Source: Thermoplasmata archaeon (GTDB taxonomy: Archaea > Thermoplasmatota > Thermoplasmata > Halarchaeoplasmatales > Halarchaeoplasmataceae). Taken from it: a stretch of DNA of 64,000 nt. The stretch covers positions 4,315-68,314 of the forward strand of contig JAWOAU010000011.1 of assembly GCA_046498385.1 (NCBI GenBank), in the 5' to 3' direction. How positions within the stretch are numbered: position 1 is the stretch's first letter; the number at the start of each line of letters is the position of its first letter. Shown here in pieces: positions 1 to 56,871 of this stretch. The notes under the pieces were generated by a model that had not been told where the DNA came from, did no database searches, and was given only the letters and a program-made list of their open reading frames with translations. The translations under genes and the position numbers were made by a program.

Positions 1-3000
1 TCACGTAGAAACCTTGGAAATCGGCTTCATCATCTTCGTAGTTGTCCATCACCGTGTTGGTCACAACCCTGAACCGGATGTTGATAACGTTGCCTGAGAA
101 GTCCGATAGGTCAACGCTGAGCCTGTTGAGAGAGCTTGCGTATACCCAGTCCTCGCCTATATCTTCACCGTCGTAACCGCCGTCGTCTCCTCCGGAGACA
201 CCCCAAGATGCTCTTACTCCCAGATTGATGGCAACCCAAGTACGTCCACCGTTATCACTCACTTCCACCCTGAATCCCGGCGGAGGTTTGCCGTCCCTTG
301 AATTTATGTTGAATTTGAATTCCGCTTCAAGATCGGCGGTTTCGGCGTTCCGCAGGTCTATGGGATCGGTGATCAAACTGTTGTCGATACCTTCTTTGAA
401 CGAGTTCCACCATGCGATGGTCGGCTGCCCATCGCTGTCCATGGTGTTATTTAGCCACCATACATCATCGGAATCCATGGTCTCGTTCCACCAATCACCG
501 CTTCGGGTGGTGATGACGCTGGTATCGTCTATCCACCATCCGCCGGGTTTGACCCCGCCGCCGTACTGTTTGTAGTAGAACCGAATTCTGACGCTCTCCA
601 ATGCTTCATAGGAAATATCATATTCATCCTGTAGCACCCACAGTTCCCGCATTAGGTCGAGCTTAACGAACTCCCAATTCATGGTACCGCCGGCACTATT
701 GCCGCTCCAGCAGAAGTGGATATCCTGCCCGAAATCATCCAAATGAGGATCTACGCTGTCGGAATCCAACAGATTACCCGTATAGGGCCCTATATGCGGT
801 CTTATATATCGCCATAGGTAGTCGTTTTCCGGGTCATCTAGATCAGGTACACCGATCTCTATATAAGCCCCGTTTACACCCTGAATCAGCCTATACCTGT
901 GCCAGAAAGTGAGCCACGCTTCATCGGCGTTGGTTAAGTCGAAGACCGGTGTAACCGCCCACTTATCGAAGTTTTCTGGTTCATCCATTAGCTCGTAAGA
1001 ATCGTCATCATTCTGCAGTACGGGGATGTCCACGCTGGTGAGATTCTGGGGGCCTGATAGAGATGCGCCAATTTGTTCAAATATGTCATCAAGATCTGTC
1101 CCATCTTCAGAGTAGTGATACTCTGCTTTTGATGTATTGGCAATTCTCCACAGATTATACTCTACAGTACCGGATTCTATTGCTAAAGGATCTGATGGAT
1201 TGATATATACGTGATTGTTAGGATCATTCCAAAAGTTTCCTTCAGCTACCGGTCTAACGTTTGTAGTAACTGCATCCCAGTTAGGTATATCTTCATAGTG
1301 TTCTAATCCCAAACCAATTGTAAATATTGGAACAGAAGCTCCTAAAAGACCTTTCCGTGTTCCTCCAGTAGGATATACCCAACCCCAGTAGCCAGGCATC
1401 TCTTTGTAATCGTTGAGCTGATATTTTCCTATACGCTCAGAGTATGGTTCTTCGGGATAGTTTGGAGAATCCATGTTGTGCCATGGACTCCATTCTTCGC
1501 TATTTTGTTCAGCCCTATCGAAAGCTACGGGGCGTGGGTTATTTATTGCTGCAGTATCACTTGCCCGGAGGTCACATCCATCGGAAAGAACTACTACTGC
1601 GCGCTGTAATTCAGGTTCTATATCGGCGTATGTATGGACCACCTCCCAATAACCCAAACCTACCGCATCCCATAACGGGGTTTGACCGCCATCCCACCAT
1701 AGAGCGTTTTCTGTATTTAACTCATCTTCTAAAGATTCCCTGTGATCGGCTAACTTATGATATGCACGACCTTCAACAAGATGTACCGCAGGATTAGATC
1801 CACTTCCACCCATGAGTAACACTATGGATTCATTTGATAACTGATTTATTAGGGTAATAGCACCTTGTTGAGCAGCCATCAACCGTTTAATACCTGCGGG
1901 CGTGTCATGATCTTTCATTGAATCAGAACCGTCTATAACAATCGCGACGAACACATCCGCCTTTTGTGCAATATCCCCTTCCGGTTCATACATGAAGTAG
2001 CTGTAGGGATCGCTGAAAGAGTGGTCGCTCACCACCTCGACTCCCTCAGTATCGGACCAGTTACCTGCAACGTTGGTATCCAGATCTGTGTACTCCTCTC
2101 CCATGTAATCTATGGGGCTCTCTCCGCTTATGTAGGCCAGCTGTGCCTCGTGGGACCACTTGCCCGGCCCTTCCTGCATATCGTCCCAGAAGTAGTAAAC
2201 AGGGGTGGTGACGATGGCCTGGTTGTTGAAGCCCATAAGGTCATCGGTTTCCCGTTCTCCGGGTGGATTGGGTACCTCGGGTATCTCATGCAGTGGATCC
2301 ACGATCACCCTGAGATTCCTTTCGGGAGATGCGAACTCGGGGGTCCATCTTAGTTCAACGTCAGCGAAGCCGTTTGCAGGTATGTATGCCGATTCGGAGC
2401 CGAGATGGTTATCACCGTCTCTGAACCGTACCAAGGCTTCGGATTCAACGCCACCGAGGTTCTGTATTCTTGTGGTGATAAAGTAAGACCTACCGATGTT
2501 GGGGTTATCACTCTCTATATCTATATCAACATCGGACACACGCAGTTCGATCCTCTCATCGTAGTGACTGAACCAGTTGTTCACCATATACAAAAATTCA
2601 GCGTGCATGGTTTCCGGTGAATAATCGAATCCCAACAAATCGTACCATTGCTGATATTCCTCGTTTATAGGAGTCCTGAAATGCGATATGTCTACCGAGG
2701 AGAACACCAGGTTGTAGCCTGCCCCGGCTACTCGGTGACCGTAAGTACTATCCGATTCTTTCAATATGGGTACTCCGTCACCCACGGTCTCGTAGGCAAA
2801 GGCATCGTCGTAGGGTTGAAGGCGATAGTTTATCCCATGGCTCAATGGATCATCGAACACGCCTTTCAGTGCTTGAGGGGCTTGTTCTTCTGCATAAGAA
2901 GACCTATCTATGCATAGGAAGAATTCAAAGATCTCATCCATCATAGGATCACCAGAAAGTCCTTGTAGTGCACCATCTCCCATGAGAAGCAGATTCTGAG

Positions 3001-5362
3001 TTCCGGGATATTCCGTATATTCCATGATATCTACCATATCATTCCAACCTAATTCACCTTCTGTTCCCGTTGTCCATATCACCAGATTAAAATTCCTCAT
3101 GAAGTCCGGGGTCAAATCAAGGTCGGTAGCATTTCTTAGCATGTAGGCATAAGTCATATCACCATATGCATTTTCAATATTCTCCACGGAATAATCAGTA
3201 TCCGTTGTATCATCGACTATCAGTGTATGGAATCTTACATGGATAAATATGTCCTGATCCGTGTAGGTTATATCGTTGTTCTCCATATTGGCCTCGGGTA
3301 TACGTTGGTATGGATTCACCACTATCTTGAGTTCGTGGGTACCCACGGGTTCCGCCACCCAATCGAACTGTACAGTTATAGCGCTGTTTTTTGGTATTGC
3401 ATACTCCTTGAATTTTATCTCTTCATCGTTCATCACCAAAGCCACTTCGGTGTAGTTTTGGTCCAAATCACCGTTATTACGTACGGTGGCGGTCACTTCA
3501 ACAGTATCTCTGTAATTGGGCATAGGGTTATAGAATTCCTGACTAGTTACCGCAAGATCGGTCATCCTCTCTTCCGATAGTCCACCGAGCCATGTTATAA
3601 CCTTGTTCACAAGGTCCGACCGGTGACCTGTACCTGCCTCCATAATGCTGTCGATTTTTACGGACTGAAAAAAAGTCCTGTATCCCCCGGGCCCCGTGGT
3701 GTTGTACGCAATGGCAACAGTCTCATTGTTTGTGTTGTCCCTGAGTGCAGGTTTTCCTTGATCAACGGGTATGATGTAATGATCTGGCTGATAGTCCATG
3801 TGTACATTGAATGTTTCCGCCTGTAGGAATATTCCTTCATGGATACCATCAAGATCGCCCAGCGGTGCCATAGCGTCGTTTCCCCTATCTGAATGAAGGT
3901 ATGTTTCGAGGAAGTCGTGATTACTGATGTCATCTGCGATATTTTCACCTATCAACCATAATCTATGGTTCTTATCCAAAAATTCTTCCAACTCATCTTT
4001 ATCGTCTTCGATAAGCGTGTCCGTATTCGATCCGGTTACCCAGATGACGAGGTCGTAGGCGGACAGCTGTATTTCACCTACATCGTATGCAGGACCGCTA
4101 CCTCCAGAAGGTATGATAAAAGTGTCATGACTATAGCCTAATCCCATAAGGGTGTTTCTCATGGTCTGAGCGTCCTGGCTCAAGGTGCTGCTGGTTCGGG
4201 ATAAACCCTTGTCTACCAACAGTATGGTCTGTTGCACGTCTAAATGCTTGCTGCCGTATGCTACGTTGTCGTTGTAATGCGCCTCTACAGTTACGTTGTG
4301 CACCCCTGCAGGTCTTATCCTCCAATCAGCCATTACATCTCTTCCACCACCTGCGGGAACGGTTATGGTTTCCGTATGGACTATGCTCCACGTACCACCA
4401 GGGGAGGTGACATTGAATACGATATCGGCCATGGTTTGAGTACCCCCTCGGTTGTAAATGCCCGCACTTGCCGTTACCATCTCTCCACTGATGGGATATG
4501 CGGGGACGAACTCCATCCGCTGTTCGTCCACGCGAAGTTCAGCCTCATCGAGTTTTTCATCGGGCTCTCCTACGTTGAGTTCCAGATATGCAAAATCTCT
4601 GTTGTCACCTTCGTCGCACGCCCTTATATCCAATCTATAGGTGCCGTTTTCCAGGTCATCAGGGATTGTATGGCGCAAGTTGAAGCGGTAGACACGGTTA
4701 TCTAATCGGCTATGGCGGTACATATCTTTAACTTCGCCTCCGATAGGCTCTAGGTCTAGGGTTACATTTAGGTCTTCAAAGGGCGAATTCATGTCCATGA
4801 CCTCTACCCAGAAGGTAACTCTTTCATCAGGATATGCAAAATCATCCCCGACTATGGGATAATCTACGTCCACCGCTCTTATAATGGGAGCTAGTTCTTT
4901 AAATTCATCCCTTAGGTACATTTGGAATATGGTATGTGACCGGTACTGATCCAGCATTACCAGCTCTATCTTTTCCGCTATAGATAGTCTAACCTGTTCA
5001 GCGCCAGAGAATTCTAAGCGTGCGGTGGCGCCTATGGTCCACTCGGAATTTCCTCCGATGCTGGCACGTATATCGTCCTGTGATACACGTATCATATCTC
5101 GCCCTTCGTCGATAAAGAGCATCATCTCAAGGTCCTGTATCTCGATACTCTTTCCGCCCTCGTGTGATATATTCAGATAATAGGTGTCCAGTTCTTCCCA
5201 GGTTATGGATAATCTGCGGTGTTGTTGGGGTACGGGCGGTTCAAAATTTTGAACGCTGGCGAAGATGGCCGTAAAAAGCACTATCGTTATGCTTAGAGTG
5301 AGTATACTGCCCACTACCTCGGAAACACCTTCTTTGTCCAGCTTAAACCCTCTTCTTAACAT
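1..5362 (-). CDS. Giant acidic secreted protein, paralog of the next gene. It has an N-terminal archaeal type IV pilin-like (class III, PF07790-like) signal peptide. The C-terminal end runs off the window start, so the CDS is partial.
   Basis: The ORF track omits it because there is no in-window stop. Manual reverse translation from the ATG (reverse complement of 5360-5362) gives MLRRGFKLDKEGVSEVVGSILTLSITIVLFTAIFASV... and stays open to position 1. An SD-like GAAGGT lies 8 nt upstream. At positions 1-140 the nucleotide and protein sequences resemble the C-terminal end of the 5368..11994 ORF. Internal segments (..DKGLSRTSSTLSQDAQTMRNTLMGLGY.., CARDB-like NYGG blocks) parallel gene 2. Confidence 0.7.
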   Translation of the reverse strand, partial: MLRRGFKLDKEGVSEVVGSILTLSITIVLFTAIFASVQNFEPPVPQQHRRLSITWEELDTYYLNISHEGGKSIEIQDLEMMLFIDEGRDMIRVSQDDIRASIGGNSEWTIGATARLEFSGAEQVRLSIAEKIELVMLDQYRSHTIFQMYLRDEFKELAPIIRAVDVDYPIVGDDFAYPDERVTFWVEVMDMNSPFEDLNVTLDLEPIGGEVKDMYRHSRLDNRVYRFNLRHTIPDDLENGTYRLDIRACDEGDNRDFAYLELNVGEPDEKLDEAELRVDEQRMEFVPAYPISGEMVTASAGIYNRGGTQTMADIVFNVTSPGGTWSIVHTETITVPAGGGRDVMADWRIRPAGVHNVTVEAHYNDNVAYGSKHLDVQQTILLVDKGLSRTSSTLSQDAQTMRNTLMGLGYSHDTFIIPSGGSGPAYDVGEIQLSAYDLVIWVTGSNTDTLIEDDKDELEEFLDKNHRLWLIGENIADDISNHDFLETYLHSDRGNDAMAPLGDLDGIHEGIFLQAETFNVHMDYQPDHYIIPVDQGKPALRDNTNNETVAIAYNTTGPGGYRTFFQSVKIDSIMEAGTGHRSDLVNKVITWLGGLSEERMTDLAVTSQEFYNPMPNYRDTVEVTATVRNNGDLDQNYTEVALVMNDEEIKFKEYAIPKNSAITVQFDWVAEPVGTHELKIVVNPYQRIPEANMENNDITYTDQDIFIHVRFHTLIVDDTTDTDYSVENIENAYGDMTYAYMLRNATDLDLTPDFMRNFNLVIWTTGTEGELGWNDMVDIMEYTEYPGTQNLLLMGDGALQGLSGDPMMDEIFEFFLCIDRSSYAEEQAPQALKGVFDDPLSHGINYRLQPYDDAFAYETVGDGVPILKESDSTYGHRVAGAGYNLVFSSVDISHFRTPINEEYQQWYDLLGFDYSPETMHAEFLYMVNNWFSHYDERIELRVSDVDIDIESDNPNIGRSYFITTRIQNLGGVESEALVRFRDGDNHLGSESAYIPANGFADVELRWTPEFASPERNLRVIVDPLHEIPEVPNPPGERETDDLMGFNNQAIVTTPVYYFWDDMQEGPGKWSHEAQLAYISGESPIDYMGEEYTDLDTNVAGNWSDTEGVEVVSDHSFSDPYSYFMYEPEGDIAQKADVFVAIVIDGSDSMKDHDTPAGIKRLMAAQQGAITLINQLSNESIVLLMGGSGSNPAVHLVEGRAYHKLADHRESLEDELNTENALWWDGGQTPLWDAVGLGYWEVVHTYADIEPELQRAVVVLSDGCDLRASDTAAINNPRPVAFDRAEQNSEEWSPWHNMDSPNYPEEPYSERIGKYQLNDYKEMPGYWGWVYPTGGTRKGLLGASVPIFTIGLGLEHYEDIPNWDAVTTNVRPVAEGNFWNDPNNHVYINPSDPLAIESGTVEYNLWRIANTSKAEYHYSEDGTDLDDIFEQIGASLSGPQNLTSVDIPVLQNDDDSYELMDEPENFDKWAVTPVFDLTNADEAWLTFWHRYRLIQGVNGAYIEIGVPDLDDPENDYLWRYIRPHIGPYTGNLLDSDSVDPHLDDFGQDIHFCWSGNSAGGTMNWEFVKLDLMRELWVLQDEYDISYEALESVRIRFYYKQYGGGVKPGGWWIDDTSVITTRSGDWWNETMDSDDVWWLNNTMDSDGQPTIAWWNSFKEGIDNSLITDPIDLRNAETADLEAEFKFNINSRDGKPPPGFRVEVSDNGGRTWVAINLGVRASWGVSGGDDGGYDGEDIGEDWVYASSLNRLSVDLSDFSGNVINIRFRVVTNTVMDNYEDDEADFQGFYV

Positions 5363-5367
5363 GGATA

Positions 5368-8300
5368 TCAACCTTCTTCTATAGAGCTACCGCTCACGAT
5401 AACGTTATCAACGTAGAAACCGGCATCCTCCCCGGGATCATCGTAGTGATTGTAACTACCGGTGGTTGTGATCATCCTGAATCGTATGCGGATAACTTCA
5501 CCTCTGAAGTCAGATAGATCCGTCTCCAACCTAGCTAGAGACTCGGCAGAGGTCCATCCGTGACCTATGTCTGTTCCCTGATATCCATCACCGCCGCCGG
5601 AAACACCCCATGAAGTTCTAACACCCAAGTTGATGGCCTGCCACGTCCGTCCGCCGTCGGTGGTGATCTCCACCCGAAATCCGTCCGGTGGTGCGCCGGA
5701 TTGAATATTGAAATTGAACTTAAAGTACGCGCTAAGTGTTGCATTTCGTGCGTTTGTCAGGTCTATGGAGGTGGTTATCAAGCTGTTGTCTATTCCGCTC
5801 TTCAGGTAATCTCCGTCGGGATCGGTAGGATGAGCGTTGCGCCACGCGGTGGTCGGATTTCCGTCCCAACCGGTGACCTCTTCCGTTCTCCAGACGTCCC
5901 GATGAGAATCAGTCAGATCATTATCGCCTCTGCTCACCACCATCCGTACGTCATCCAGGTACCAACCGTAACCTGTACCACCACCGTACTGGGTGTAGTT
6001 GAACATTATCCTTACATCGTCCTCATAACCCTCGGGAACGTACCGCAGCACGTTTATCTGTACCCTGTCCCAGCCGAAGGCTCCCCCACCGCTGGTACCA
6101 CTCCACGCGAAGTTGATATCATTCCCGAAGCTGTCCGTTCTTGTAACATCCATGTCAAGATTACTGGTGTAGGCCCCTTCCGTTGGTATTGCGTAGGTCC
6201 ATGCGTAACCGTGTTCGTCCACCCAATCTGCATCGAGATCCTCATCGGCCATCACGCCTACCATCACGAAACCACCATTGGTACCGGTAACCATTCTGTA
6301 CTTCGAGCGGAAGACGAGTCCAGCTTGCTGGTAATCCTGGAGGCTGAAGGATGGTGTGATCGCGGTTTTGTTGGTATTTTGCTCTCCAGGTTCACCGGGG
6401 TCGAGGTCATCGGGATCCTCTCCCTCAGCAACAGTGGTGAATGACCATGTTGCGGATTCATTCGTCATTGTTCCATCAAATGCTATTGCATACCATGAGT
6501 ATTCAACTTCATATTCAAGACCGTACCATCTAACCCCCGGGGTTCTAGTTCCACTGGGAACATCAAGATCGAAACCGATCAAATTGTCGTTGGATGCATC
6601 AAAGAATGCCACATCCATTGCTTTATCATCCGGGTGGGACACATATACACTCAGACTCGGTGTTGTGCTAACTGATGTTGCCCCGTCGGTGGGGTTTGGG
6701 TTTGTAGGTGAATCCGGAGGGTTTATTGCGGAATCCGAATGGGTAAACCCTTCTATACGAGAATTGTGATCTTCATCACCCCATGAGAAATATGAATATG
6801 TTCGTGTCCACCAGTATCCGTCCCTCTGTGTATAGTAATAAACAGTCCATTCGTTATCACGTAAGCTAACAGCACCCAGTTGTTCTGTGGTGAATTCGGC
6901 TCTTTGATTCCATGCACCACTTCCAAATCTATCGTAAACCCTCACAACGATGGAATCGGTAGTTGAAATTGAACTGTAAGGAGGTGTCCATGTTGCAGAT
7001 TGAATACCCTCGCCGTTTGAACTGCGTGATACTTGAGCAACAGGAGTTCCCGTTGTTATCTCTTCCGTACCACCCATCTCGTCCCGGGCCCAAACTCTTA
7101 TGCCCCATGTAACTGCAACATTAGAATCGATATCGTCTCCAACCGTATCAAAATCCAACCCGGGGCCGTCGGATTCCAATCTATATGTATCCAAGCCGTT
7201 GACATCCCAGGTCGTTGTTTTCATATATCGTGTTTCCGTAGTCTGTGCCCAACTATTTCTTGAAGTATATTCAGTACCAGTATCGTAGATGGCTATATCG
7301 TTGTCGGGAATAGATGTAACATTACCGGCTTCCGCTGACTCCTGAACAACCTCACTGAATATCTGTTGGAATATGCCTCCGAGTTGATCTGAATCAGGGG
7401 CATAGAAGTAACTCCCGTTGGTTGACTTTGCTATCTGGATTAATTGATATTCGCTCGTGAACGGGTATTCGGATGCAAAGGGAGACATGTAACTGGCATC
7501 TCCTGAAGGCAGATACGCACTGGGTGATGTACCCAATGCAACCGTGTACGTTAACATCGGTGCATTCACAAGAGCCAAACGTTCTGTGGAACGACTACTT
7601 GATCTTCTGTATAGGAGTTCTATCCAATCCACACTACCGTCATCCCAACGTAGTACATCATTATTAGATCCACCTTGATCTCGGTAATCGAATGCATCAT
7701 CACCCCATTCGTGACCGCCATCAACTCCCCAGGTATGATCCAAAGGTCCAACCCCTCGAACGCATCCGGGGGCATAAATATTACTTCCTCTTTCCGGAGG
7801 ATCATCAGCAAAATGTTCATCATCACCGTCGGTGAATAGTATAGTCGCTTGAACATAGTCTTCATCAGGAATACCGGTTGGTCTTGGATTGTCAATCACA
7901 TGGTTCAAGGTATAACCTGATGCATCCCAAAGGGGCGTCCCCCCACTTGCTGTGAAATCGTCTACTCTGGATTTAAAGAAATCCTTGTTGTCGTCCGTCA
8001 TGTATCTGAAATCTTCCCATAGGAAGGAGCCATCATCTTTATGATAACTGTCCAAATTAAACAAAGCTACCCGATCGTTCTCATCGAACATGTCTATCAG
8101 ATCTTTGGTTGCTATTTTTGCATCCTCGATTTTATCCCCGGACATACTTCCCGTGGTATCTACCATAACGCCCATATCTATCGGTAACCTGCCGCCGCTT
8201 ATCTCTCCGCCGACGGACTCCTTGAGATGATACGAGTACGGGTCGCTGAAGGCGTATTCATCGGTATTATTGATACCCTCGGACATATCGTTGTCCCAAT

Positions 8301-11300
8301 CATCGATGATTTCGGTGTAAACCGAGTCGTACTCTCCACTGAGATATTCAAGGGGATGCTCTCCGTTGACGTTCATTATGGTGGCTTCGGTCTCCCAGTT
8401 ATCCGCCCCGCTCTCCATATCATCCCAGAAGTAGTAGACCGGCGTCTCTATGAGGGCGTGGTTGTTGAAGCCCATGGTATTGTCGCCGATCTCGTCCACG
8501 GTACAGCGGGGGTCCACCAGCACACGTACGGGACGTACCGGACCGGCGAACAGCGGTCTCCACATAACTTCCGCAGTCGCACTGCCCCCGGAAGGTATGT
8601 ACATGCTCTCAGAGGCGATGTGGGAGTCTCCGTCCTTGAAGCGGACCAGGGCATCGGAGGGACTGTGTCCTAAGTTCGTTATGGTAGCACTCAAAAGATA
8701 AGAACGGCCGAGCATGGGTTGTTGTTCCTCTACGCTTATGTCCACCGAGGATATCTTGAGTTCAACCCTCTCGTCAACGTTCCCTAGATGATCGGTGACC
8801 ATGTATGTTAACTCGGTTTGCACGGGTAAGGAATCCAAGTCGATGTCCTCCTGGAAATCGTCGTACCAATCATCCAGGTAGACAGGACCTGTAAGACGGG
8901 CAAGGTCCATACCCAGGAAGATCACCTTTGAATCCTCGTAATCGTTTCTCGCACCTATCAGGGCATCCTTCTCATCGTTGTGGTAAGTGTATGCGAATCC
9001 GTGGCCACCGTTCAATACAAAAGTAGTGTGGGATCCATCCTCACCGTCAACACTGTATTCCATACCATGACCCAGTTCGTCGTCTATCTCTCCTCTTATC
9101 TCGTGAGGTGCATTGGTAACATTTCCAATATCACCTAAATTTCCGCTTATACCCATCACATCGTCTATGAACCCTGAATCAACTTCCCTAATATGTTCAA
9201 GCACGTTATCGCCGCTCAAAAAGAAGCTAGTCCCTTCTTTTTTGTCAAGGAATTCCTTTATACTCTCGAGCACGTCTCCAGATATAGCCTCTTTTACTTC
9301 CCCTGCATCCCAGTACACTGTATTGTAGCGTTTCAGAGTTTCGTTTATGTCTATGGGATCCCCGTTTTCATCTTCTATGCTTTCATCTTGGTAAGTGTAA
9401 ATATTATGTGCGTACCCCAGTTCTTCCAAAGTGCTCTGGAGCGGCGTATCCTCTCCTTCGACCCGGGCATTCACCAGCATCACCGAGAAGCGCACGTTCA
9501 CCGTGTAGTCAACGTCGGTGTAGCGTATATCGTTGTTCTCCTGAGTTGTCTCTTCTACACGGTTGTAGGGATCAACGACTACCAGTATCTCATGCACGCC
9601 AACCGGTTCGGCCGTCCAGTAAAAGGTAACGTCCTTTGTCTCGCCCTCAGTTATGTTAACGTACTTTCTGTAGTCCTCTCCCCTGAGATAATTACCGTTA
9701 ACCTTGAGCCGTACTTCCACGTTCGTCATATTTTCCACACCGTTGTTGAGTATGGTCCCGGTTACGTTTACTTCTTGCTGATACATGGGATGTATCGGTC
9801 CGTAGACCCCGTCGAATTTCTGGTCGATCAGGGCAAGGTCGTTGCCGTGACGTTGGCTGATGTTTCCAAGCCATTCGAGTACCCTGCCGGCCATCAGTAA
9901 CCTGCTCCCGGGCTCCACGGACCTGAACATATAGGAGTTGAACATGGTCCTGTTTCTTCCGCCTTCCCAGCTAACACCCAGTCCACCTCCTCCGTCACCA
10001 TCTGTCATTGCAAGTGTCCCTTCATCTATTGCATCGATATATCCCCCTTTCCAGGTTCCGGTTGCGGGATAATGCTGTCCCTCGGTGAAAGGCGTGTCTA
10101 TACCGTATATCAGACTTTTAAAGGGTGCATCTGCATTTGCAATATCTATCTCTGCGTGCAGGTTATCTTGGAGCCAACCATCCCAACCATTTTCTTGAGC
10201 ATCGTTCAGGATACCTTCGCCTACGAGCCACAGGAATCCACCTTCTTCGATGAACTTCGCAAGATTCTCCCGGTCAGCTTCAGTGAGGGTTCTGCGCATC
10301 TCTATATTATCTCCTCCTAGGTCCCTCCTGGTCCTACCGGTCATCCATATGACTAGATCCTGTTCTTTCAGCGGAAACTCACCTTCATCCCAAAGGGGAG
10401 GTGAGTTTGTATATCTATAATCCTGATCTAGGCCGTCCAATGCCCCTTTCATCGCCCTTCCGTCGCTGCCATAGGTCTCTTGAGTATCGTCTACCAGTAG
10501 TATGATGGGACTTACGAACAATTCACTCCTGTCGATGTTCAAATCCGGACTGGCATCGCTACCGCCGGTTGAAAAGATGTCGTGCAGTTCGACGGTTATC
10601 TCATGTTCACCGCTGCCGTTCACCTGCCAGGTAACCTGTAAGTCCCTGCCACCTCCAGCGGCCACGTGGAGATGCTCTATGAAGCCTATATTTTCACCGT
10701 AGTCCAACTCATCATACACTTCGTGAGGCAGTCTATCGTAAAACGAAATGTTCATCCTGGCGGAGCTCCCGCCGTAGTTCTCTATGGTGGCCCGGACGGT
10801 AACGCTGTCTCTGTTCGTTGGATTCACAGGAATGAACTCCTGTATATTGACACGCAAGTCGGGCTCTTCACCTACGACTCCGGCCCGGCCCACGTTTAGC
10901 GTAATGTACTCAGACCGTGACCAGGCTACGCTATTGTTCATGGTCCCGTTAACCGCCAGCTCTCGAGATATATCTTCGTTTCCCGTATGTATGTATATCC
11001 GCAGCAAATACGTACCGTTATCCTGTTCTCTAGGCACCGTGAGGGACCCTGAATGGGGGTAAACGAACCGGTTACCTTGTCTGCTCATGTTGTACAGATT
11101 GGAACCCCATGCACCACCATCCTGGAATCCTTCTATACGTCCAAGGTCGACCATCACGTTATCTTTTATATCGTTCAAATCTCCGCCATCCCACTCTATA
11201 TTAGCGTAAAGAGAAACATCTTCTCCTGCATCGACGGCTACATGCCATGGTTGGGGGTACACCACGCCGGCTTCTTTAACATAGGGACGTTCGCCGAGGA

Positions 11301-11823
11301 TACCGCTGATGAATACTTCGCCATCCCACACGATGCCACCGTGGGTTATTATCAATACGGTCAGGCGGTCGACGGAGTTCTCCATCTCACTCCAGTCTTC
11401 ATAACTTAGCTTATCAGGTAGTTCGGTCACGTTTAACATAAGATTCCCTCCGATATCCCAGTATTGTTCATCCCTCCCGGTGATCTCGATTATCTCTTCG
11501 TCGTCGAACATGAAGCGGTGACTGCGAACCCTCTCGTCATAGGACACAATATGAAGACTGGATTCACGAATATTTATGGGATGTCCTCCTTTATGTTCGA
11601 TGGTTATGGTTCTGATCATCTCTTCATCCACCACCTCCCAACTAAAATTAGCTTCCATGGTCAGATAAGCGGTCCTTTCCGGCGATTCCAATCTTGTGAC
11701 AGCGGCAAAGATAGTGGAAAAGAGCACTACCGTTATAGATAAAACAAGGATGGTGCCTACCACTTCCGACACAGCACTTCCGTCTTTACTCAGTCTGCGT
11801 TTGCAAAAATCATTTCGTTTCAA
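5368..11823 (-). CDS. Giant (about 2,150 aa; ORF track gives 5368..11994, 2208 aa) acidic secreted protein. It has an archaeal type IV pilin-like N-terminal signal peptide, CARDB-like and FN3-like beta domains, and a vWA (MIDAS) domain. It is a putative pilus-associated adhesin.
   Basis: The 6.6-kb ORF is uninterrupted. The pilin_N-like motif KRRLSKDGSAVSEVVGTILVLSITVVLFSTIFAAV lies about 60 aa after the track's first Met. A likely true start is TTG at 11821-11823 (reverse complement), preceded by GGGGGT 7 nt upstream. The upstream 170 nt of the track ORF overlaps the divergent gene at 11963. The vWA motifs DTTGSMSG...ASGGTPLWDA...ILFTDGDD map to about 7800-8170. There are many N-x-S/T sequons. 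Confidence 0.75.
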   Translation of the reverse strand: MKRNDFCKRRLSKDGSAVSEVVGTILVLSITVVLFSTIFAAVTRLESPERTAYLTMEANFSWEVVDEEMIRTITIEHKGGHPINIRESSLHIVSYDERVRSHRFMFDDEEIIEITGRDEQYWDIGGNLMLNVTELPDKLSYEDWSEMENSVDRLTVLIITHGGIVWDGEVFISGILGERPYVKEAGVVYPQPWHVAVDAGEDVSLYANIEWDGGDLNDIKDNVMVDLGRIEGFQDGGAWGSNLYNMSRQGNRFVYPHSGSLTVPREQDNGTYLLRIYIHTGNEDISRELAVNGTMNNSVAWSRSEYITLNVGRAGVVGEEPDLRVNIQEFIPVNPTNRDSVTVRATIENYGGSSARMNISFYDRLPHEVYDELDYGENIGFIEHLHVAAGGGRDLQVTWQVNGSGEHEITVELHDIFSTGGSDASPDLNIDRSELFVSPIILLVDDTQETYGSDGRAMKGALDGLDQDYRYTNSPPLWDEGEFPLKEQDLVIWMTGRTRRDLGGDNIEMRRTLTEADRENLAKFIEEGGFLWLVGEGILNDAQENGWDGWLQDNLHAEIDIANADAPFKSLIYGIDTPFTEGQHYPATGTWKGGYIDAIDEGTLAMTDGDGGGGLGVSWEGGRNRTMFNSYMFRSVEPGSRLLMAGRVLEWLGNISQRHGNDLALIDQKFDGVYGPIHPMYQQEVNVTGTILNNGVENMTNVEVRLKVNGNYLRGEDYRKYVNITEGETKDVTFYWTAEPVGVHEILVVVDPYNRVEETTQENNDIRYTDVDYTVNVRFSVMLVNARVEGEDTPLQSTLEELGYAHNIYTYQDESIEDENGDPIDINETLKRYNTVYWDAGEVKEAISGDVLESIKEFLDKKEGTSFFLSGDNVLEHIREVDSGFIDDVMGISGNLGDIGNVTNAPHEIRGEIDDELGHGMEYSVDGEDGSHTTFVLNGGHGFAYTYHNDEKDALIGARNDYEDSKVIFLGMDLARLTGPVYLDDWYDDFQEDIDLDSLPVQTELTYMVTDHLGNVDERVELKISSVDISVEEQQPMLGRSYLLSATITNLGHSPSDALVRFKDGDSHIASESMYIPSGGSATAEVMWRPLFAGPVRPVRVLVDPRCTVDEIGDNTMGFNNHALIETPVYYFWDDMESGADNWETEATIMNVNGEHPLEYLSGEYDSVYTEIIDDWDNDMSEGINNTDEYAFSDPYSYHLKESVGGEISGGRLPIDMGVMVDTTGSMSGDKIEDAKIATKDLIDMFDENDRVALFNLDSYHKDDGSFLWEDFRYMTDDNKDFFKSRVDDFTASGGTPLWDASGYTLNHVIDNPRPTGIPDEDYVQATILFTDGDDEHFADDPPERGSNIYAPGCVRGVGPLDHTWGVDGGHEWGDDAFDYRDQGGSNNDVLRWDDGSVDWIELLYRRSSSRSTERLALVNAPMLTYTVALGTSPSAYLPSGDASYMSPFASEYPFTSEYQLIQIAKSTNGSYFYAPDSDQLGGIFQQIFSEVVQESAEAGNVTSIPDNDIAIYDTGTEYTSRNSWAQTTETRYMKTTTWDVNGLDTYRLESDGPGLDFDTVGDDIDSNVAVTWGIRVWARDEMGGTEEITTGTPVAQVSRSSNGEGIQSATWTPPYSSISTTDSIVVRVYDRFGSGAWNQRAEFTTEQLGAVSLRDNEWTVYYYTQRDGYWWTRTYSYFSWGDEDHNSRIEGFTHSDSAINPPDSPTNPNPTDGATSVSTTPSLSVYVSHPDDKAMDVAFFDASNDNLIGFDLDVPSGTRTPGVRWYGLEYEVEYSWYAIAFDGTMTNESATWSFTTVAEGEDPDDLDPGEPGEQNTNKTAITPSFSLQDYQQAGLVFRSKYRMVTGTNGGFVMVGVMADEDLDADWVDEHGYAWTYAIPTEGAYTSNLDMDVTRTDSFGNDINFAWSGTSGGGAFGWDRVQINVLRYVPEGYEDDVRIMFNYTQYGGGTGYGWYLDDVRMVVSRGDNDLTDSHRDVWRTEEVTGWDGNPTTAWRNAHPTDPDGDYLKSGIDNSLITTSIDLTNARNATLSAYFKFNFNIQSGAPPDGFRVEITTDGGRTWQAINLGVRTSWGVSGGGDGYQGTDIGHGWTSAESLARLETDLSDFRGEVIRIRFRMITTTGSYNHYDDPGEDAGFYVDNVIVSGSSIEEG

Positions 11824-11962
11824 TTTTGATACCCCCAAGGTAACACTACAGCAAGTCTTTCTAGAATATATAAACGTTGTGTGGTAATCACCATTTTCAG
11901 ATGGTAATCGCACTCGACAACATTTATATCGTGTACCGCACCTAAACCCTCTTTGAAATAAC

Positions 11963-12937
11963 ATGAAAATAGGGGTCGTAGGTGTCGGGTCCATGGGTCA
12001 GAATCACGCCCGTGTCCTTGACCAGATAGGGTATCTTGCAGGTGTTATGGATTCTAAAAAAACCGCAGCCAAAGCCGCGGGTGAAAAACACAACGTACCG
12101 TGGTTCACCGATCTAAAGGGATTCCTGGAAACCGGTATGGACGGGGTAACGGTGGCTACACCTGCACGGACCCATGTGGACGTATGCGAAGAGATGATCA
12201 AAGAGGGGATACCGGTACTGGTGGAAAAGCCCATAGCGCTATCGCTCCCAAAGGCTGAAAGTCTGGTGAAACTGGCAGAGGAACAAAACGTTGTTCTGGC
12301 GGCGGGGATGATAGAAAGACACAACCCGGTGGTATCCTCCGCAAAAAAACTTCTCCAGGACGGAAACGTAGGTGACGTGATAACCATCAGCTCCAAGCGG
12401 GTGAGCTCCTTTCCCACTCGTGTAGCGGATATGGGTGTGATCCATGATCTCGCCATCCACGACGTGGACGTCATGCGCTACCTCATAGGAGAAGAACCGG
12501 AAAAGGTATTCGCCTTGGGCGGTCCCGCCAATCAAGGTAAATACGAGGACCACGCCAACATGATGCTGCACTTTCCAGGAGACATAACAGGCGTTTTGGA
12601 GGTCAACTGGCTCACACCTCATAAGGTGAGAAAACTCTCACTCACCTGTTCCAACGATTTCATCGAGATAGACTACATCGCCCAGTCCCTTGTGCTCACC
12701 TCTTCCAGGCTCATGGAATACGATACCAGCAATCTGTTCGACATACCTCTTGAGCACAACATACGCAAGTACACAGTTAAGCGTCAGGAACCGCTCATGA
12801 AGGAGATGGAGGATTTCGTCGGTGCCGTTAAAAAGAAGCACCCGCCCCTAGTTACCGGTAAGGACGGCTTGTTGAGCATGAAAGTGGTGGATGCCGCCAG
12901 ACGCTCCATGGTAGAGGGGAAGGAGGTCTACGTTTGA
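11963..12937 (+). CDS. Gfo/Idh/MocA-family NAD-dependent oxidoreductase (UDP-GlcNAc(A) 3-dehydrogenase, WbpB-like)
   Basis: The N-terminal Rossmann motif MKIGVVGVGSMGQNHARVL and the 324-aa length fit the family. The 4-nt ATGA overlap with the downstream acetyltransferase is typical of wbpB-wbpD-like sugar-modification pairs. Confidence 0.75.
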   Translation: MKIGVVGVGSMGQNHARVLDQIGYLAGVMDSKKTAAKAAGEKHNVPWFTDLKGFLETGMDGVTVATPARTHVDVCEEMIKEGIPVLVEKPIALSLPKAESLVKLAEEQNVVLAAGMIERHNPVVSSAKKLLQDGNVGDVITISSKRVSSFPTRVADMGVIHDLAIHDVDVMRYLIGEEPEKVFALGGPANQGKYEDHANMMLHFPGDITGVLEVNWLTPHKVRKLSLTCSNDFIEIDYIAQSLVLTSSRLMEYDTSNLFDIPLEHNIRKYTVKRQEPLMKEMEDFVGAVKKKHPPLVTGKDGLLSMKVVDAARRSMVEGKEVYV

Positions 12938-13515
12938 AAAAGATGGGGCCTATAATAAAGGGGGAAAACGTATACATCTCAGAGACCGCCATCCTGGGTC
13001 ATCCCGGTAAAAAAAACAAGGACCTTTTGATAACCGGAAGGTTCAACGGACTCCGACCGGTTAAAATAAAAGACGACGTACTGTTGAGAGATCACACCGT
13101 TGTCTACGAAGGCGTAAGCTTGGGAACAGGGGTGGAAACCGGCCACCGTGTACTGATAAGGGAGGATACCGATATAGGTGAACACACCGTCGTCGGCAGC
13201 GGTACTATAATCGAAGCGGGCTGCGAAATAGGAAAAAAAGTGTCCATCCAAAGCTCCGTATATCTAGCCAACGGGACAAAAGTATTGGACGATGCATTCC
13301 TTGGACCTATGGTCTGCTTGATCAACGATAAATACATGGACGGTAGAATCCAACCGTGTACCATCGGCGAAGACGCAAGGATCGGGGCGGGCTCCACCAT
13401 ATTTCCCGGTGTATCGGTAGGTAAAGGGGCGGTGGTAGGTGCCGACTCTCTGGTAACAAAGGACATACCTAACAACAAAAAAGCCTTTGGCAGACCTGCA
13501 AAGCTCCGGGGTTAG
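12934..13515 (+). CDS. Hexapeptide-repeat (left-handed beta-helix) acetyltransferase, WbpD-like UDP-amino-sugar N-acetyltransferase
   Basis: The sequence shows repeated [LIV]-G-x-x-x-x hexapeptides (IGEHTVVGSGTIIEAGCEIGKKVSIQ...), is 193 aa long, and is translationally coupled to the oxidoreductase. Confidence 0.7.
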   Translation: MKKMGPIIKGENVYISETAILGHPGKKNKDLLITGRFNGLRPVKIKDDVLLRDHTVVYEGVSLGTGVETGHRVLIREDTDIGEHTVVGSGTIIEAGCEIGKKVSIQSSVYLANGTKVLDDAFLGPMVCLINDKYMDGRIQPCTIGEDARIGAGSTIFPGVSVGKGAVVGADSLVTKDIPNNKKAFGRPAKLRG

Positions 13516-15052: not shown

Positions 15053-16189
15053 ATGGGAACTAAAGAGCTCACGTACAAGGAGAAGGTCCTTCTATATCTT
15101 AGGGATTACAAGTCTTTGGGTGAAAAGAAGGTTTATCCTAGGGGGATCACTCAAAAAGGTATAGCTGAAGCCGTGGGCATGCGCAGGACCCATGTTTCCA
15201 GGGTGATGAGGGACCTTATAGAAAACAAAGAAGTAGAAGAATATCTAGGACACGTTAAGGGCCGTTCCAGAAAACTAAAGGTTTACACCCTAAGACCGGA
15301 GGGTGTGGCGAGGGGTGACGAGATAATAAAAGAACTTGAAAGTGTGTATGTACAGGTTTCCAAAGAAGGGAGAACCTTCAAGTCCAAACTCACCGAACTT
15401 GAAGAACTTTCTGGAAAAAGACTGAGCCTTCTGGAATCCATCGAGCTGGTTGAAACCTCCGATCAACCTATAGACCTGGATGAATCCGGTTCAAAACGGT
15501 TTGTGACTGAACTTTCCAAGGCACCTGTTGTAGAAGAACTATACGGTAGAAATGAAGTTTTAACGATGATGGACGAATGGATGAAAAAAGATATCCCGGT
15601 TGCGGTTTTGGAGGGGCGAAGAGGTTCCGGCGCATCGTGTACCGCCCGCCGTTTTCTTGATTCGGTGGATGACAGACACCTGCTTTGGGTCGATGTGCAG
15701 GATGATGATGTGATAAAGAAGATAGATGATTTTTTTTTCACCGTCCATGATGATAAAAAAAAATTGTTTCAGGCATTAAAGGAAACTCCTGCATTGATCG
15801 TGATCGATGATTATTACAACGTAGAGGACGAACTTGTGGACTTTTTTGTGGAGATGGTTGATCGATTGGATAAAGAATACCAAACTAAAATACTGGTGAC
15901 TACCAGGGAAGGTCTACCGGTCTACGAACGGTTTTATCACCGAGAACATTTGAAGGAGGGAAAAGTGGACCAAATAAGCATACCCCCACTTAACGAAGAA
16001 GAGGCGGAGTTGATACTGGGCAAAGAGTTGGAATCCAGCGCCCTCCGACGTATAATGTTGATGACCAAGGGTTCGCCCCAGATACTCAAACACCTCCGGG
16101 ACGGCCGTATCGATAAGATAGAGGGGGAAAGTGCATTGGTCAGGGAGCAGGTTTCACTGCTTATGTTTCTAAAGGAACAGACCCGCTGA
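15053..16189 (+). CDS. Winged-HTH plus P-loop-like (degenerate Walker A) domain protein, a putative regulator
   Basis: The N-terminal wHTH is GITQKGIAEAVGMRRTHVSRVMRDLIE. A central degenerate Walker A is VAVLEGRRGSGAS (no Lys) and a Walker-B-like segment is ALIVIDDYY. It resembles archaeal ATPase-domain regulators. Confidence 0.45.
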   Translation: MGTKELTYKEKVLLYLRDYKSLGEKKVYPRGITQKGIAEAVGMRRTHVSRVMRDLIENKEVEEYLGHVKGRSRKLKVYTLRPEGVARGDEIIKELESVYVQVSKEGRTFKSKLTELEELSGKRLSLLESIELVETSDQPIDLDESGSKRFVTELSKAPVVEELYGRNEVLTMMDEWMKKDIPVAVLEGRRGSGASCTARRFLDSVDDRHLLWVDVQDDDVIKKIDDFFFTVHDDKKKLFQALKETPALIVIDDYYNVEDELVDFFVEMVDRLDKEYQTKILVTTREGLPVYERFYHREHLKEGKVDQISIPPLNEEEAELILGKELESSALRRIMLMTKGSPQILKHLRDGRIDKIEGESALVREQVSLLMFLKEQTR

Positions 16190-16242: not shown

Positions 16243-16327
16243 GCGGGGGTAGCTCAGCCTGGTAGGGCGATGGACTGCTAATCCATTGGTGCCTTGCACC
16301 CCGGGGGTTCAAATCCCCCTCCCCGCG
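16243..16327 (+). tRNA. tRNA-Ser (anticodon GCU), type II with a long variable arm
   Basis: The cloverleaf fits: acceptor GCGGGGG/UCCCCGC, anticodon stem ATGGA/TCCAT with loop CTGCTAA, a 16-nt variable arm with a GGTGC/GCACC stem, T-loop TTCAAAT and discriminator G. No CCA is encoded. Confidence 0.85.
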
Positions 16328-16353: not shown

Positions 16354-18120
16354 TCAGTAATCTACCGTCCACTTTACGGCATAGTCTTCACCGTTATACA
16401 CCATGTAACCCTGTCCTGGCGAGAAGGTAAAGTTTCCCGCATCATAATCGTAAGATACGTTGTACTCACCATTCGTATCAAAATATCCTATTTTCGTCAC
16501 TTCTCCCGGGAGGCCGTGATTCCCTTCACTCTCACTAGGTACTCCAACCATGTTCCAGCCAGGATATAGGGCTATGTCGGTGCTGGTCGGTTCGATCCCT
16601 TCCATGGTAAGTAAGTCATCCTTGAGCATACGTATCCAGAAACCCATAGTGTATTCCAAGTTGTGTAGGCTGTTGAAATTCTCAGGCCTGTTCGGTGAGT
16701 AAACCAGCCAATCTTCGATAGAAGCATCGTAATACAACACCCGGTCGTAATTTCCTTCGATATCCGCTAAAAGATATGCAATAGACGTATCTTTCGGCGA
16801 TATGTTAAAAGAAATAAAGTTCCATCCTCCGCTTTCAGGAAAAGCATACAAATTTAGTTCGACGGATCTAACTACCGGCGTATCCTGCCACTGTAGAAGA
16901 GGATAAGTTACATTCTCTATTATGCACCAGATCTCTTGGAAATCCCATCCAACGTCGGTAAAAGTACTCTTGTTTTGCATCTCGGCGGTTATCTTTCTGG
17001 TAGCATTACCAGCGGTTTCTGTCTGATAACTGGTTTCGGAATCCCAGAAGTTGCCAACCATCTGGTAATCACCGTCTACCTTTCCGGCGAATCCATTTTC
17101 ATATGGATCGGACGCTCCATCGTAAAGCACACGTCCCGTGGAATAGCTGTTTGTGATATTCATGCCTTGGTTGAACCCTACAAACCCGCCGAAGCTCGTA
17201 GCATCACCCGATGTGCGAGTTACATTTCCTCTGGAATAAGAGTCAAAGACCGAACCGACGTTGAGTCCTACAAATCCACCGGAGTTGCTAACACCTATAA
17301 CCTCTCCCGTTGCATAACATTTGGACAAGGTTCCCTCCTCGTTCCAGCCTACGAATCCTCCGACGTCATCACCTGTACCGTCTACGTTCCCTGTAGCATA
17401 AGATCTAAGGACGGTGCCGCCCCAGTTGAATCCTACGAGACCACCTATATAGTGGTTTCCGCTAACCCCCCCAACGGCATAGGAGTCGGATATGCTACCA
17501 TCGTTTCTACCTGCAAGACCTCCGAGTCGGGAGCTTCCTTCGATGTTTGCCTCACTATGAGCGTTTGATATCACACCAGTACTTAGCCCTACGAGACCAC
17601 CGACCCAAAACCGTCCTACAATGTGTCCTGCGGTATAGGAATTGTTTATACTACCTCCTTCGTTTGAACCCACCAAACCCCCAACACCATTATCGCCTGT
17701 TATTTTCGCATCGATCATCCTGACCTCGTTTATCTCTGAATTGTCTGTACGACCAAATAGACCTATGTATCTCGAGTCCGGTCTGTTGATGTATAATCCG
17801 GTTATCTCATAGCCATTCCCATCTAATCTGCCGCTGAACTGATAGTCATAGTTCCCTACGGGTTCGAACCCTGCCCCATCGTTCCACTCCTTGGTCACAT
17901 TGGCATCTATATCGTTTGCCAGTGCATAGTGTGCACTCAAATTATTTCTCATCGCCTGCAAATCGTGAACATCGTATATCATATGTGGATCATCCAACGT
18001 ACCGCTTCCCTCACCAAACGTGTGCGATTCTATTTCTATACGGCGCAAATTTCCCACACCACCGGATGCTACTGCTAAAGTACAGACCACAAAAAACACA
18101 GCACAGACCTTTCCCATCAT
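16354..18120 (-). CDS. Secreted GLUG-repeat protein (signal peptide plus about 12 tandem GGLVG/GGFVG GLUG motifs plus a C-terminal beta domain)
   Basis: The signal peptide is MMGKVCAVFFVVCTLAVASG. Repeats of about 20 aa of the form [NS]xSYaTG.V.G....GGLVG (the GLUG motif, PF07581-like) span about 17100-17800. The protein is 588 aa. Confidence 0.7.
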   Translation of the reverse strand: MMGKVCAVFFVVCTLAVASGGVGNLRRIEIESHTFGEGSGTLDDPHMIYDVHDLQAMRNNLSAHYALANDIDANVTKEWNDGAGFEPVGNYDYQFSGRLDGNGYEITGLYINRPDSRYIGLFGRTDNSEINEVRMIDAKITGDNGVGGLVGSNEGGSINNSYTAGHIVGRFWVGGLVGLSTGVISNAHSEANIEGSSRLGGLAGRNDGSISDSYAVGGVSGNHYIGGLVGFNWGGTVLRSYATGNVDGTGDDVGGFVGWNEEGTLSKCYATGEVIGVSNSGGFVGLNVGSVFDSYSRGNVTRTSGDATSFGGFVGFNQGMNITNSYSTGRVLYDGASDPYENGFAGKVDGDYQMVGNFWDSETSYQTETAGNATRKITAEMQNKSTFTDVGWDFQEIWCIIENVTYPLLQWQDTPVVRSVELNLYAFPESGGWNFISFNISPKDTSIAYLLADIEGNYDRVLYYDASIEDWLVYSPNRPENFNSLHNLEYTMGFWIRMLKDDLLTMEGIEPTSTDIALYPGWNMVGVPSESEGNHGLPGEVTKIGYFDTNGEYNVSYDYDAGNFTFSPGQGYMVYNGEDYAVKWTVDY

Positions 18121-55492: not shown

Positions 55493-55494
55493 GG

Positions 55495-55713
55495 TTGACA
55501 CTGATGATAGAAGTAAATGAGGATTACTGTAAAGGATGCAACCTGTGCATATTGTTCTGCCCTAGGGATGCACTCGAGGAGAGTGAAGAATTGAACAAAA
55601 AAGGAGTTCATCAACCAGTGGAGATAGAAGGTAGATGCAACAACTGCAGATTGTGTGAATTGATATGTCCGGACTTTGCTATTACGGTTGTTGAGGATGA
55701 AGAAGATGAATGA
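55495..55713 (+). CDS. 2-oxoacid:ferredoxin oxidoreductase delta subunit (ferredoxin-like), second OFOR locus
   Basis: The motifs CKGCNLCILFCP and CNNCRLCELICP are present. The protein is 72 aa. Confidence 0.75.
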   Translation: MTLMIEVNEDYCKGCNLCILFCPRDALEESEELNKKGVHQPVEIEGRCNNCRLCELICPDFAITVVEDEEDE

Positions 55714-56869: not shown

Positions 56870-56871
56870 AG

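Follow-up and report, generated by a model that had tools for sequence, protein, structure and literature searches.

A giant type IV pilin-like protein with an embedded von Willebrand factor A domain, encoded in a tandem gene pair of Thermoplasmatota

The 64,000-nucleotide stretch analysed here, from a contig of an uncultured salt-lake Thermoplasmata archaeon (JAWOAU010000011.1; hereafter the window) encodes a giant pilin-like protein, protein A, in which a genuine von Willebrand factor A (vWA) domain with a conserved metal-ion-dependent adhesion site (MIDAS) lies far behind an N-terminus that reads as an archaeal PilA-type pilin module. Gene A stands in tandem with a paralogue, gene B, and the pair was found in metagenome genomes of Thermoplasmatota only. 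The hypothesis that we lean towards makes protein A a modular archaeal type IV pilin, serving as an adhesin that depends on metal and is anchored by its pilin module, at the tip of a pilus or on the membrane. Adhesion in archaea relies mainly on type IV pili, and the archaeal pilins characterised so far are small. Bacteria graft adhesive modules such as vWA onto minor pilins, and the locus described here would be the same grafting solution at extreme scale: a PilA-type module followed by ~1,950 residues that include a vWA domain with a conserved MIDAS. The gene and its vWA domain lie as follows (residues of protein A are numbered on its 2,151-residue form).

5368..11823, minus strand: gene A, giant pilin-like protein, 2,151 residues from TTG 11823
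7324..8181, minus strand: complete vWA domain of protein A, residues ~1215-1500
7555..7827, minus strand: structured insertion inside the vWA domain, beta4 to beta5, residues ~1333-1423 (~90 residues)

A preliminary description of this DNA, made from the letters alone, had picked out three vWA motifs, and all of them are found in the minus-strand open reading frame (ORF) 5368..11994 and within 7800-8170: VDTTGSMSG at nucleotides (nt) 8137-8163, SGGTPLWDA at nt 7921-7947 and ILFTDGDD at nt 7819-7842. The vWA assignment made there holds against the Pfam-A VWA model (PF00092), which gives a significant match of 30.0 bits (gathering cutoff 23.8, E 7.5e-7) at residues 1273-1394 in the numbering of the longest ORF, or nt 7813-8178, covering profile positions 1-117 of 174. 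A family profile built from an alignment of 18 sequences (protein A, its downstream paralogue B and 16 relatives) matches dozens of solved vWA domains in the PDB, the best being collagen VI (E 4.7e-13), with further matches to ITIH4, the calcium-channel alpha2delta subunit, the fimbrial tip protein Mfa5, RrgA and Streptococcus sanguinis PilB (E 0.008). An AlphaFold2 model of 315 residues (nt 7294-8238; mean pLDDT 84.9, pTM 0.86) shows alternating beta and alpha elements, and Foldseek matches it to many vWA domains of the PDB with probability 1.00: ITIH4 at the top (E 6e-9, TM 0.79 normalised on the target), the S. sanguinis minor pilin PilB next (7b7p/7ba2, E ~1e-7), and also ITIH1, alpha2delta, mussel PTMP1, the pilus adhesins SpaC, RrgA, GBS104 and Mfa5, archaeal ArnB and the LapA vWFA domain. 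With a profile match above the curated threshold and a Rossmann-like alpha/beta fold in the model, the vWA domain of protein A is confirmed as genuine, far beyond chance; a chance occurrence of the motifs is rejected by the E-values, the fold model and the conservation within the family.

The span first proposed for the domain, 7800-8170, does lie within it but takes in only its first two thirds. The full domain (~7324-8181) reaches to about nt 7324 because an insertion of ~90 residues parts beta4 (..TDGDD) from beta5 (..TYTVALG), and its C-terminal third was recovered by the family profile and the AlphaFold2 model. In that model beta4 ends in ..FTDG, and the insertion is followed by beta5 (TYTVALG), the helix EYQLIQIAKS, beta6 (SYFY) and a last helix. 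The insertion itself bears a family motif in the alignment, GSxxYxP...W; strands are predicted in it at 195-206 of the modelled segment, where 10-residue blocks have mean pLDDT values of 86 and 80, and its first ~10 residues (143-150 in the same numbering) fall below a pLDDT of 50. Generic vWA proteins outside the family align over the first ~120 residues only, and the insertion-bearing half is therefore specific to the family. A word-indexed search with the vWA profile did not recover the family, its 12 matches being generic bacterial SBP+vWA proteins, and is uninformative on distribution.

The MIDAS of protein A consists of D1222, T1224, S1226, T1296 and D1332 (D-T-S-T-D). The motif had been described beforehand as DxSxS, and it is indeed present and in canonical order, but its actual form is D-x-T-x-S (DTTGS), the first Ser being replaced by Thr. 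Besides protein A, three of 34 family vWA regions have this Thr; the family consensus is DTSGS. Conservation was assessed on 35 vWA regions aligned to the family hidden Markov model (HMM), comprising the two window genes together with loci from species-representative genomes and metagenome contigs. At the first position every one of the 35 regions has D; at the second, 27 have S and four have T; at the third, 33 have S; at the fourth, 29 have T and one has S; and at the fifth, 34 have D. All five positions (D, S/T, S, T, D) are intact in 30 of the 35, in keeping with the conservation of the site that the preliminary description had presupposed, and five members have a clearly degenerate site (for example, D-G-x-K-D). 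In the segment numbering of the model, D27, T29 and S31 follow beta1, T101 precedes the helix at 103-116, and D137 follows beta4, so that the predicted structure places the MIDAS residues at the canonical loop positions.

At the other end of the protein stands the pilin module, the leading feature in the domain map, as follows.

11299..11823, minus strand: class III signal peptide and PilA-type pilin module, residues 1 to ~175
within it, residues 16-93: Pilin_N (Pfam 45.8-48.8 bits)

The N-terminus of protein A reads MKRNDFCKRRLSKDGSA/VSEVVGTILVLSITVVLFSTIFAAV, where the slash marks the predicted prepilin cleavage, which would fall at ..KDGSA/VSEVVGTILVLSITVVLFS. It has the attributes of a class III signal peptide, namely a charged leader, G or A at position -1 and a hydrophobic helix that is the sole hydrophobic segment, and the motif [GA]/VSE[VI][VI]GTIL is kept across the family together with the leader, in at least 60 relatives. 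Pfam Pilin_N (PF07790) gives protein A 45.8 bits, above its cutoff of 25.2. The solved archaeal pilins 8fj5_A (E 1.3e-11, residues 6-126 of 145), Natrinema PilA2 8gi2 (E 1e-7) and 9myg (E 7e-7) are matched as well by a profile made from 35 N-termini of the family; the alignment takes in the leader, alpha1 and the 'ITHxGG' motif, and extends over nearly the full length of the solved pilins. For the module AlphaFold2 (pLDDT 87.8) predicts a helix at 16-43 and a beta-sandwich after it. The pilin-like N-terminus of the preliminary description is accordingly real, given the 45.8 bits of Pilin_N and the E of 1.3e-11 to archaeal pilins, and by its sequence it is a genuine archaeal PilA-type pilin module.

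The length of protein A depends on the start codon. The longest ORF holding gene A (5368..11994, minus strand) gives 2,208 residues from ATG 11994 and opens 171 nt upstream of the likely start; this ATG is an unlikely start, judged from its context, because it overlaps a divergent gene (11963-12937) and stands upstream of a TATA-like TTTATATA box. The in-frame codons TTG 11838 and TTG 11823 are plausible candidates, the former giving 2,156 residues as in NCBI MFO8109113.1 ('MAG: CARDB domain-containing protein [Thermoplasmata archaeon]'), to which the product is 100% identical. With either of them (2,151 residues for TTG 11823), the length of ~2,150 residues first given for the protein is right. 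Between the pilin and vWA modules, and behind the latter, segment-wise Pfam scans delineate the following domains and regions.

10591..10863, minus strand: CARDB-like immunoglobulin (Ig)-fold domain 1, a weak match, residues 321-411 (Pfam CARDB 19.6 bits in the segment scan)
residues ~412-675: region without assignment, ~260 residues
9529..9798, minus strand: CARDB domain 2, residues 676-765 (Pfam CARDB 50.9 bits)
residues ~770-1025: region without assignment, ~260 residues
8488..8742, minus strand: CARDB-like domain 3, a weak match, residues 1028-1112 (18.8 and 16.9 bits in two overlapping segments)
residues ~1500-2010: region without assignment, with a weak MAM-like match at ~1765-1861
5395..5790, minus strand: C-terminal MAM-like jelly-roll domain, residues 2012-2143 (Pfam InhA-like_MAM 41.9-43.2 bits)

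Over the whole protein CARDB scores 77.6 bits across three stretches in Pfam. The regions at residues 412-675 and 770-1025 yielded no informative sequence matches in the PDB; matches to scFv obtained for these ~260-residue regions were rejected, with a Gly-rich linker as their cause, and a flavodoxin-like or GATase1-like fold, which came up as an impression, is not claimed for them. Protein A has a single hydrophobic segment (residues 15-45) and no C-terminal anchor, and the ~1,950 residues beyond the pilin module, in a protein of ~235 kDa, are taken to be extracellular domains. It is very acidic (pI 4.2, D+E 17.5%), which is consistent with a salt-adapted organism. The number of N-glycosylation sequons (22, against 16.3 +/- 3.6 in shuffles) is not a significant enrichment and was dropped as evidence.

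Gene B lies directly downstream of gene A, its ATG at 5362 being a few bases inside the gene A end (the ORF ends at 5368), and it runs 12 residues past the window start.

2..5362, minus strand: gene B, tandem paralogue, at least 1,787 residues in the window, 1,799 residues in full (P0095)
1043..1948, minus strand: vWA domain of paralogue B, residues ~1139-1440, with a canonical MIDAS, DGSDS ... T ... D

The N-terminus of protein B is of the same pilin type, with a predicted cleavage at ..KLDKEG/VSEVVGSILTLSITIVLF, and the protein has a vWA domain of its own besides CARDB and a MAM-like C-terminus. In Pfam this vWA domain reaches 20.3 bits with VWA_2, below the cutoff of 27; it aligns to the family vWA with its five MIDAS positions intact. 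Identity between the two proteins is 27% over ~1,500 residues and 46% over the last 341, and A has ~290 extra residues after the vWA domain.

A search with the whole of protein A returned 66 homologues of 1.2-2.6 thousand residues, nearly all with Pilin_N and CARDB and many with vWA, and every named one belongs to metagenome-assembled genomes (MAGs) of Thermoplasmata/Thermoplasmatota, including Ca. Saliniplasma. A genome scan for the pattern [GA]VSE[VI][VIL]G[TD]IL, with one genome per GTDB species, yielded 206 confirmed stretches, and all 76 loci kept are from Thermoplasmatota MAGs, some of them deposited as Euryarchaeota or Methanobacteriota. The giant pilin-vWA architecture, as it appears from these sequences, is therefore not unique to the genome of the window and recurs in many public Thermoplasmatota MAGs, where the relatives carry generic names ('CARDB domain-containing protein', 'FlaG/FlaF family flagellin') that could be improved. 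The closest relatives come from soda-lake and hypersaline samples (HAP27 and CSSed10_214, with 55-56% identity; Ca. Haladaptatiplasma, Saliniplasma and Natronoplasma), and the family habitats comprise hypersaline, soda-lake, soil and sediment environments of uncultured Thermoplasmatota. Of the complete Pilin_N ORFs, 27 have 1,700 residues or more, and in 26 of these a family-specific vWA HMM found the domain at residues ~1145-1510; it found the domain in none of the 29 complete ORFs that are shorter.

The gene pair is as constant as the domain. At every relative locus examined a longer gene is followed in tandem by a shorter one, and at two loci three such genes stand in a row. Protein B is nearest to the product of the second gene of the pair in seven of eight loci and protein A to that of the first in five of eight; by this sorting the duplication into A-type and B-type is old, and the pair has been retained together. 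In one lineage (L002/L003) the pair is followed by genes for two proteins with N-termini of class-III-like type (..EDG/LTNVIAIVLII and ..SSA/VSNIVTSIMML, the latter a DUF7289 protein) and a PilB3-type ATPase. In two relatives, L001 (7976-9738) and L004 (642-2405), the giant pair is preceded by genes for a small KaiC-like ATPase (PF06745, 236 residues) and a protein of ~313 residues without a Pfam match, the N-terminus of which is coiled-coil-like (read in L001 only); KaiC-family ATPases were proposed as regulators of type IV pili in a 2016 census (PMC4858521). Three soil or sediment Thermoplasmata MAGs (L043, L050 and L055) encode Pilin_N proteins of 540-620 residues with a VSEVVG N-terminus and without vWA; unlike the giants, these have a T2SSE ATPase gene at a distance of less than 10 kb.

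An exhaustive HMMER search with the vWA domain, run over 1.84 billion cluster representatives, found 134 proteins at E<=1e-30. The whole insertion-type vWA is matched by 83 of 136 new representatives, 30 of which have a Pilin_N N-terminus; the remaining matches are fragments or giants with an ordinary Sec-type signal peptide. The module has therefore been combined with more than one kind of anchor. The Sec-type giants (P0105, P0108-P0111, P0130, P0131, P0144 and P0145) have 1,200-2,400 residues, with the vWA domain at residues ~270-570 or ~950-1220.

Among characterised systems, the nearest in design is PilB of S. sanguinis (7b7p), a bimodular minor pilin that, like protein A, carries a MIDAS-bearing vWA domain behind a type IV pilin module at its N-terminus and that acts with a second modular pilin, PilC, as A stands beside B. 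It differs in its bacterial origin, in its class III signal (the N-methylated type, IPR012902, instead of archaeal Pilin_N), in its size (~50 kDa and one extra module, against ~235 kDa and at least seven modules in A), and in its vWA domain, which lacks the ~90-residue beta4-beta5 insertion and has ~12-14% sequence identity to that of A. Haloarchaeal PilA-type pilins (Pilin_N/DUF1628; 8fj5, 8gi2 and 9myg) are homologous to protein A in the leader, the cleavage motif, alpha1 and the 'ITHxGG' beta-sandwich motif; however, they are repeating subunits of 135-165 residues, whereas the module is the first ~8% of A, and they have Pro at position +3 (VSPVIG) where A has Glu (VSEVVG). Tad systems are bacterial relatives of archaeal pili, and TadG (Tad/Flp), like Pseudomonas aeruginosa PilY1, resembles A in having a vWA domain on, or associated with, type IV filament components, a likeness of generic vWA similarity; TadG is small and thought to act at the pilus base, and PilY1 is not a pilin and docks via a beta-propeller. 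The tip adhesins of sortase-assembled and type V pili (RrgA 2ww8, GBS104 3tvy, SpaC 6m48 and Mfa5 6to1; Foldseek E 5e-7 to 3e-6) share the MIDAS vWA, which they hold at the pilus tip on an Ig-like stalk, often with arms inserted beside the MIDAS face, but they are bacterial, lack a pilin alpha-helix and belong to filaments of unrelated chemistry (covalent sortase polymerisation or strand exchange). ArnB, an archaellum regulator, has an archaeal vWA fold (8s05, Foldseek E 6e-7; PMC4858521) but is a cytoplasmic protein without a signal peptide.

The earlier remark that this is not a described archaeal pilin architecture agrees with the searchable literature, in which we found no description of the giant Thermoplasmatota pilin-vWA family. 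The census of archaeal type IV pili discusses vWA only in ArnB-like regulators and mentions large proteins with class III signals only as possible adhesins (PMC4858521), and the survey of modular pilins, in the main text of which the word 'archaea' is absent, searched InterPro IPR012902 and covered monoderm and diderm bacteria (PMC8179133). In domain make-up, protein A corresponds to the modular type IV pilins of Raynaud et al. (2021; PMC8179133), in which a pilin module at the N-terminus is joined to at least one domain foreign to type IV filament biology: it has Pilin_N, three CARDB domains, vWA and a MAM-like domain. It does not carry the bacterial IPR012902 signature on which that definition and survey rest. 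Surveys made with the bacterial signature missed the archaeal counterpart. The principle of a vWA domain on type IV components is already known from bacteria (PilB, TadG and PilY1), and the advance is hence incremental in concept: what is new, though not categorically so, is an archaeal, giant and paired modular pilin with a conserved insertion-type vWA domain. The family offers a concrete target for studying how the uncultured archaea that carry it attach to particles or partners.

If protein A is a modular pilin, a prepilin peptidase would cut it before VSEVVG, and the N-terminal helix would keep the protein in the membrane, from which a machine of the T2SSE/T2SSF type may extract it into a filament. 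Protein A would then sit with its partner B at the filament tip, or else stay behind as a membrane-anchored stalk; at ~235 kDa it is too bulky for a repeating filament subunit, and its place, if it is in a filament, would therefore be the tip, probably with B. The MIDAS would take up a divalent cation, the coordination of which would be completed by an acidic ligand group on a particle, a polymer or another cell. In S. sanguinis the modular pilins PilB (vWA) and PilC (lectin module) form a tip complex with PilA (PMC8179133, PMC10191384), and the vWA module of PilB, thought to be located at the tip, binds host proteins in a MIDAS-dependent manner (PMC8179133); placing A and B at a tip would, by analogy, parallel this complex. 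A candidate machinery for A and B is encoded in the window by two genes, the link to the pair being conjectural.

58262-60247, minus strand: T2SSF/TadC-like membrane protein, 661 residues (Pfam T2SSF 27.4 bits)
60240-61961, minus strand: T2SSE-family ATPase, 573 residues (Pfam T2SSE 78.1 bits)

We rejected the identification of this ATPase/TadC pair as an archaellum motor: the ATPase is TadA/FlaI-like but scores far below the FlaI equivalog cutoff of NCBIfam, and neither archaellin nor pilin genes were seen beside it; the pair remains a generic type IV filament machine. Upstream of the ATPase gene lies an ORF of 166 residues (61966-62466) without a family match.

Several observations weigh against a pilus adhesin. 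The T2SSE/T2SSF genes lie ~46 kb from genes A and B in the window, most of the related loci have no assembly ATPase within 10 kb of the giant pair (machinery is adjacent in one relative only), and a motif search of the window with a crude regular expression found neither a prepilin peptidase (A24) motif nor a small major pilin. Archaeal class III signal peptides are also found on surface proteins that are not part of pili, such as the sugar-binding proteins of the Sulfolobus bindosome, and the N-terminus is therefore no proof of incorporation into a pilus; with the model of the N-terminus, Foldseek gave weak matches only, to FlaG and archaellin (E ~2e-3). As for the vWA domain, such domains can also serve intramolecular or subunit contacts instead of binding external ligands, and in protein A the first MIDAS Ser is Thr, a variant for which metal binding is a prediction from sequence.

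Three other explanations were weighed. Protein A could be a membrane-anchored envelope protein, its processed pilin helix serving as an anchor only, in the manner of the archaeal bindosome, with A and B forming a large heteromeric surface layer or glycocalyx in which the MIDAS mediates lattice, partner or cell-cell contacts and not adhesion at a pilus tip. Such a role would suit a pair so widespread in Thermoplasmatota MAGs (the 206 stretches of the scan), with an old A-type/B-type split, a fixed gene order and usually no type IV assembly ATPase adjacent, as well as proteins of ~2,000 residues with many Ig-like spacers; moreover, the insertion-type vWA also occurs on Sec-signal giants and does not depend on a pilin anchor. 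The N-terminus is, however, a complete PilA-type domain, with ~110 residues homologous to filament-forming pilins, and the L002/L003 pair is clustered with pilin-like genes and a PilB3-type ATPase, and we regard the envelope explanation as rather doubtful. Alternatively, protein A could serve in the biogenesis or anchoring of a pilus, as TadG or minor pilins do. Its pilin module would then prime the assembly of the filament, and its vWA domain would act within the machinery, anchoring or stabilising the filament or sensing force as proposed for PilY1, and would bind no ligands from the environment. TadG, a vWA pseudopilin of bacteria, is thought to be a pilus anchor (cited in PMC4858521), and the vWA domain of PilY1 is one that it shares with modular pilins (PMC8179133). 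A conserved pair of genes would suit a priming complex, minor pilins being common primers of assembly; yet the long extracellular part (~1,950 residues), with its Ig-like spacers and the jelly roll at its end, has the look of an extended display stalk and not of a basal component, and the pair is usually not encoded with the machinery. We regard a biogenesis factor as quite improbable. Lastly, the vWA domain could be a degenerate structural remnant without metal-dependent function, a notion that draws on DTTGS in protein A and in three other aligned regions of the family and on the five degenerate sites among 35, which imply that loss is tolerated in some lineages. Against it, Thr retains the coordinating hydroxyl, protein A is intact at the remaining four positions and 30 of 35 regions are so at all five, and the model puts the residues at canonical loop positions; we give this explanation very little credence.

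Setting these alternatives aside and returning to the modular pilin, a broader proposal may be put forward tentatively, as a possibility that we would not call likely: the conserved A/B pair would make up a surface apparatus that defines the Thermoplasmatota as a lineage, either a giant heterodimeric adhesin or a scaffold of the envelope, which stands on a type IV filament, replaces it or coats the cell. In brines with abundant divalent cations, its MIDAS sites would let the cells attach to particles or to partner cells in a cation-dependent way. If so, this would be the first archaeal modular pilin system, with what would be, to our knowledge, the largest pilin-type proteins.

The surroundings of the pair contain further genes of possible relevance to the cell surface. 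Upstream of gene A, and divergent from it, lie genes for a GFO/IDH/MocA oxidoreductase, a hexapeptide acyltransferase, a TPR protein, a GNAT protein, an NTPase of the helix-turn-helix (HTH)-STAND type and a GLUG-motif protein of 588 residues, beyond which are rpoD and ribosomal protein genes. The sugar oxidoreductase and the acyltransferase (11963-13515, plus strand) form a pairing that is typical of amino-sugar modification, and they may be linked to the glycosylation of surface proteins. The only family match of the 588-residue protein (16354-18120, minus strand) is to GLUG, with four motifs (Pfam 92 bits); repeats of this kind are found in bacterial adhesins and IgA proteases, and this may be another surface protein. 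A regulator or a defence-type NTPase may be encoded at 15053-16189 (plus strand), where the product, of 378 residues, starts with a Crp-like HTH and has a weak match to STAND/NB-ARC NTPases; its gene adjoins a tRNA (16243-16327), one of two tRNAs that were the only matches in an Rfam scan of the window. Three other stretches (34682-36826, 45550-48549 and 53831-57744) encode the hydrogenase maturation factor HypF, a 999-residue FAD/4Fe-4S oxidoreductase of HdrA-like architecture, an FAD-binding dehydrogenase and the alpha and beta subunits of a 2-oxoacid:ferredoxin oxidoreductase, and this set of housekeeping and energy genes agrees with an anaerobic heterotroph.

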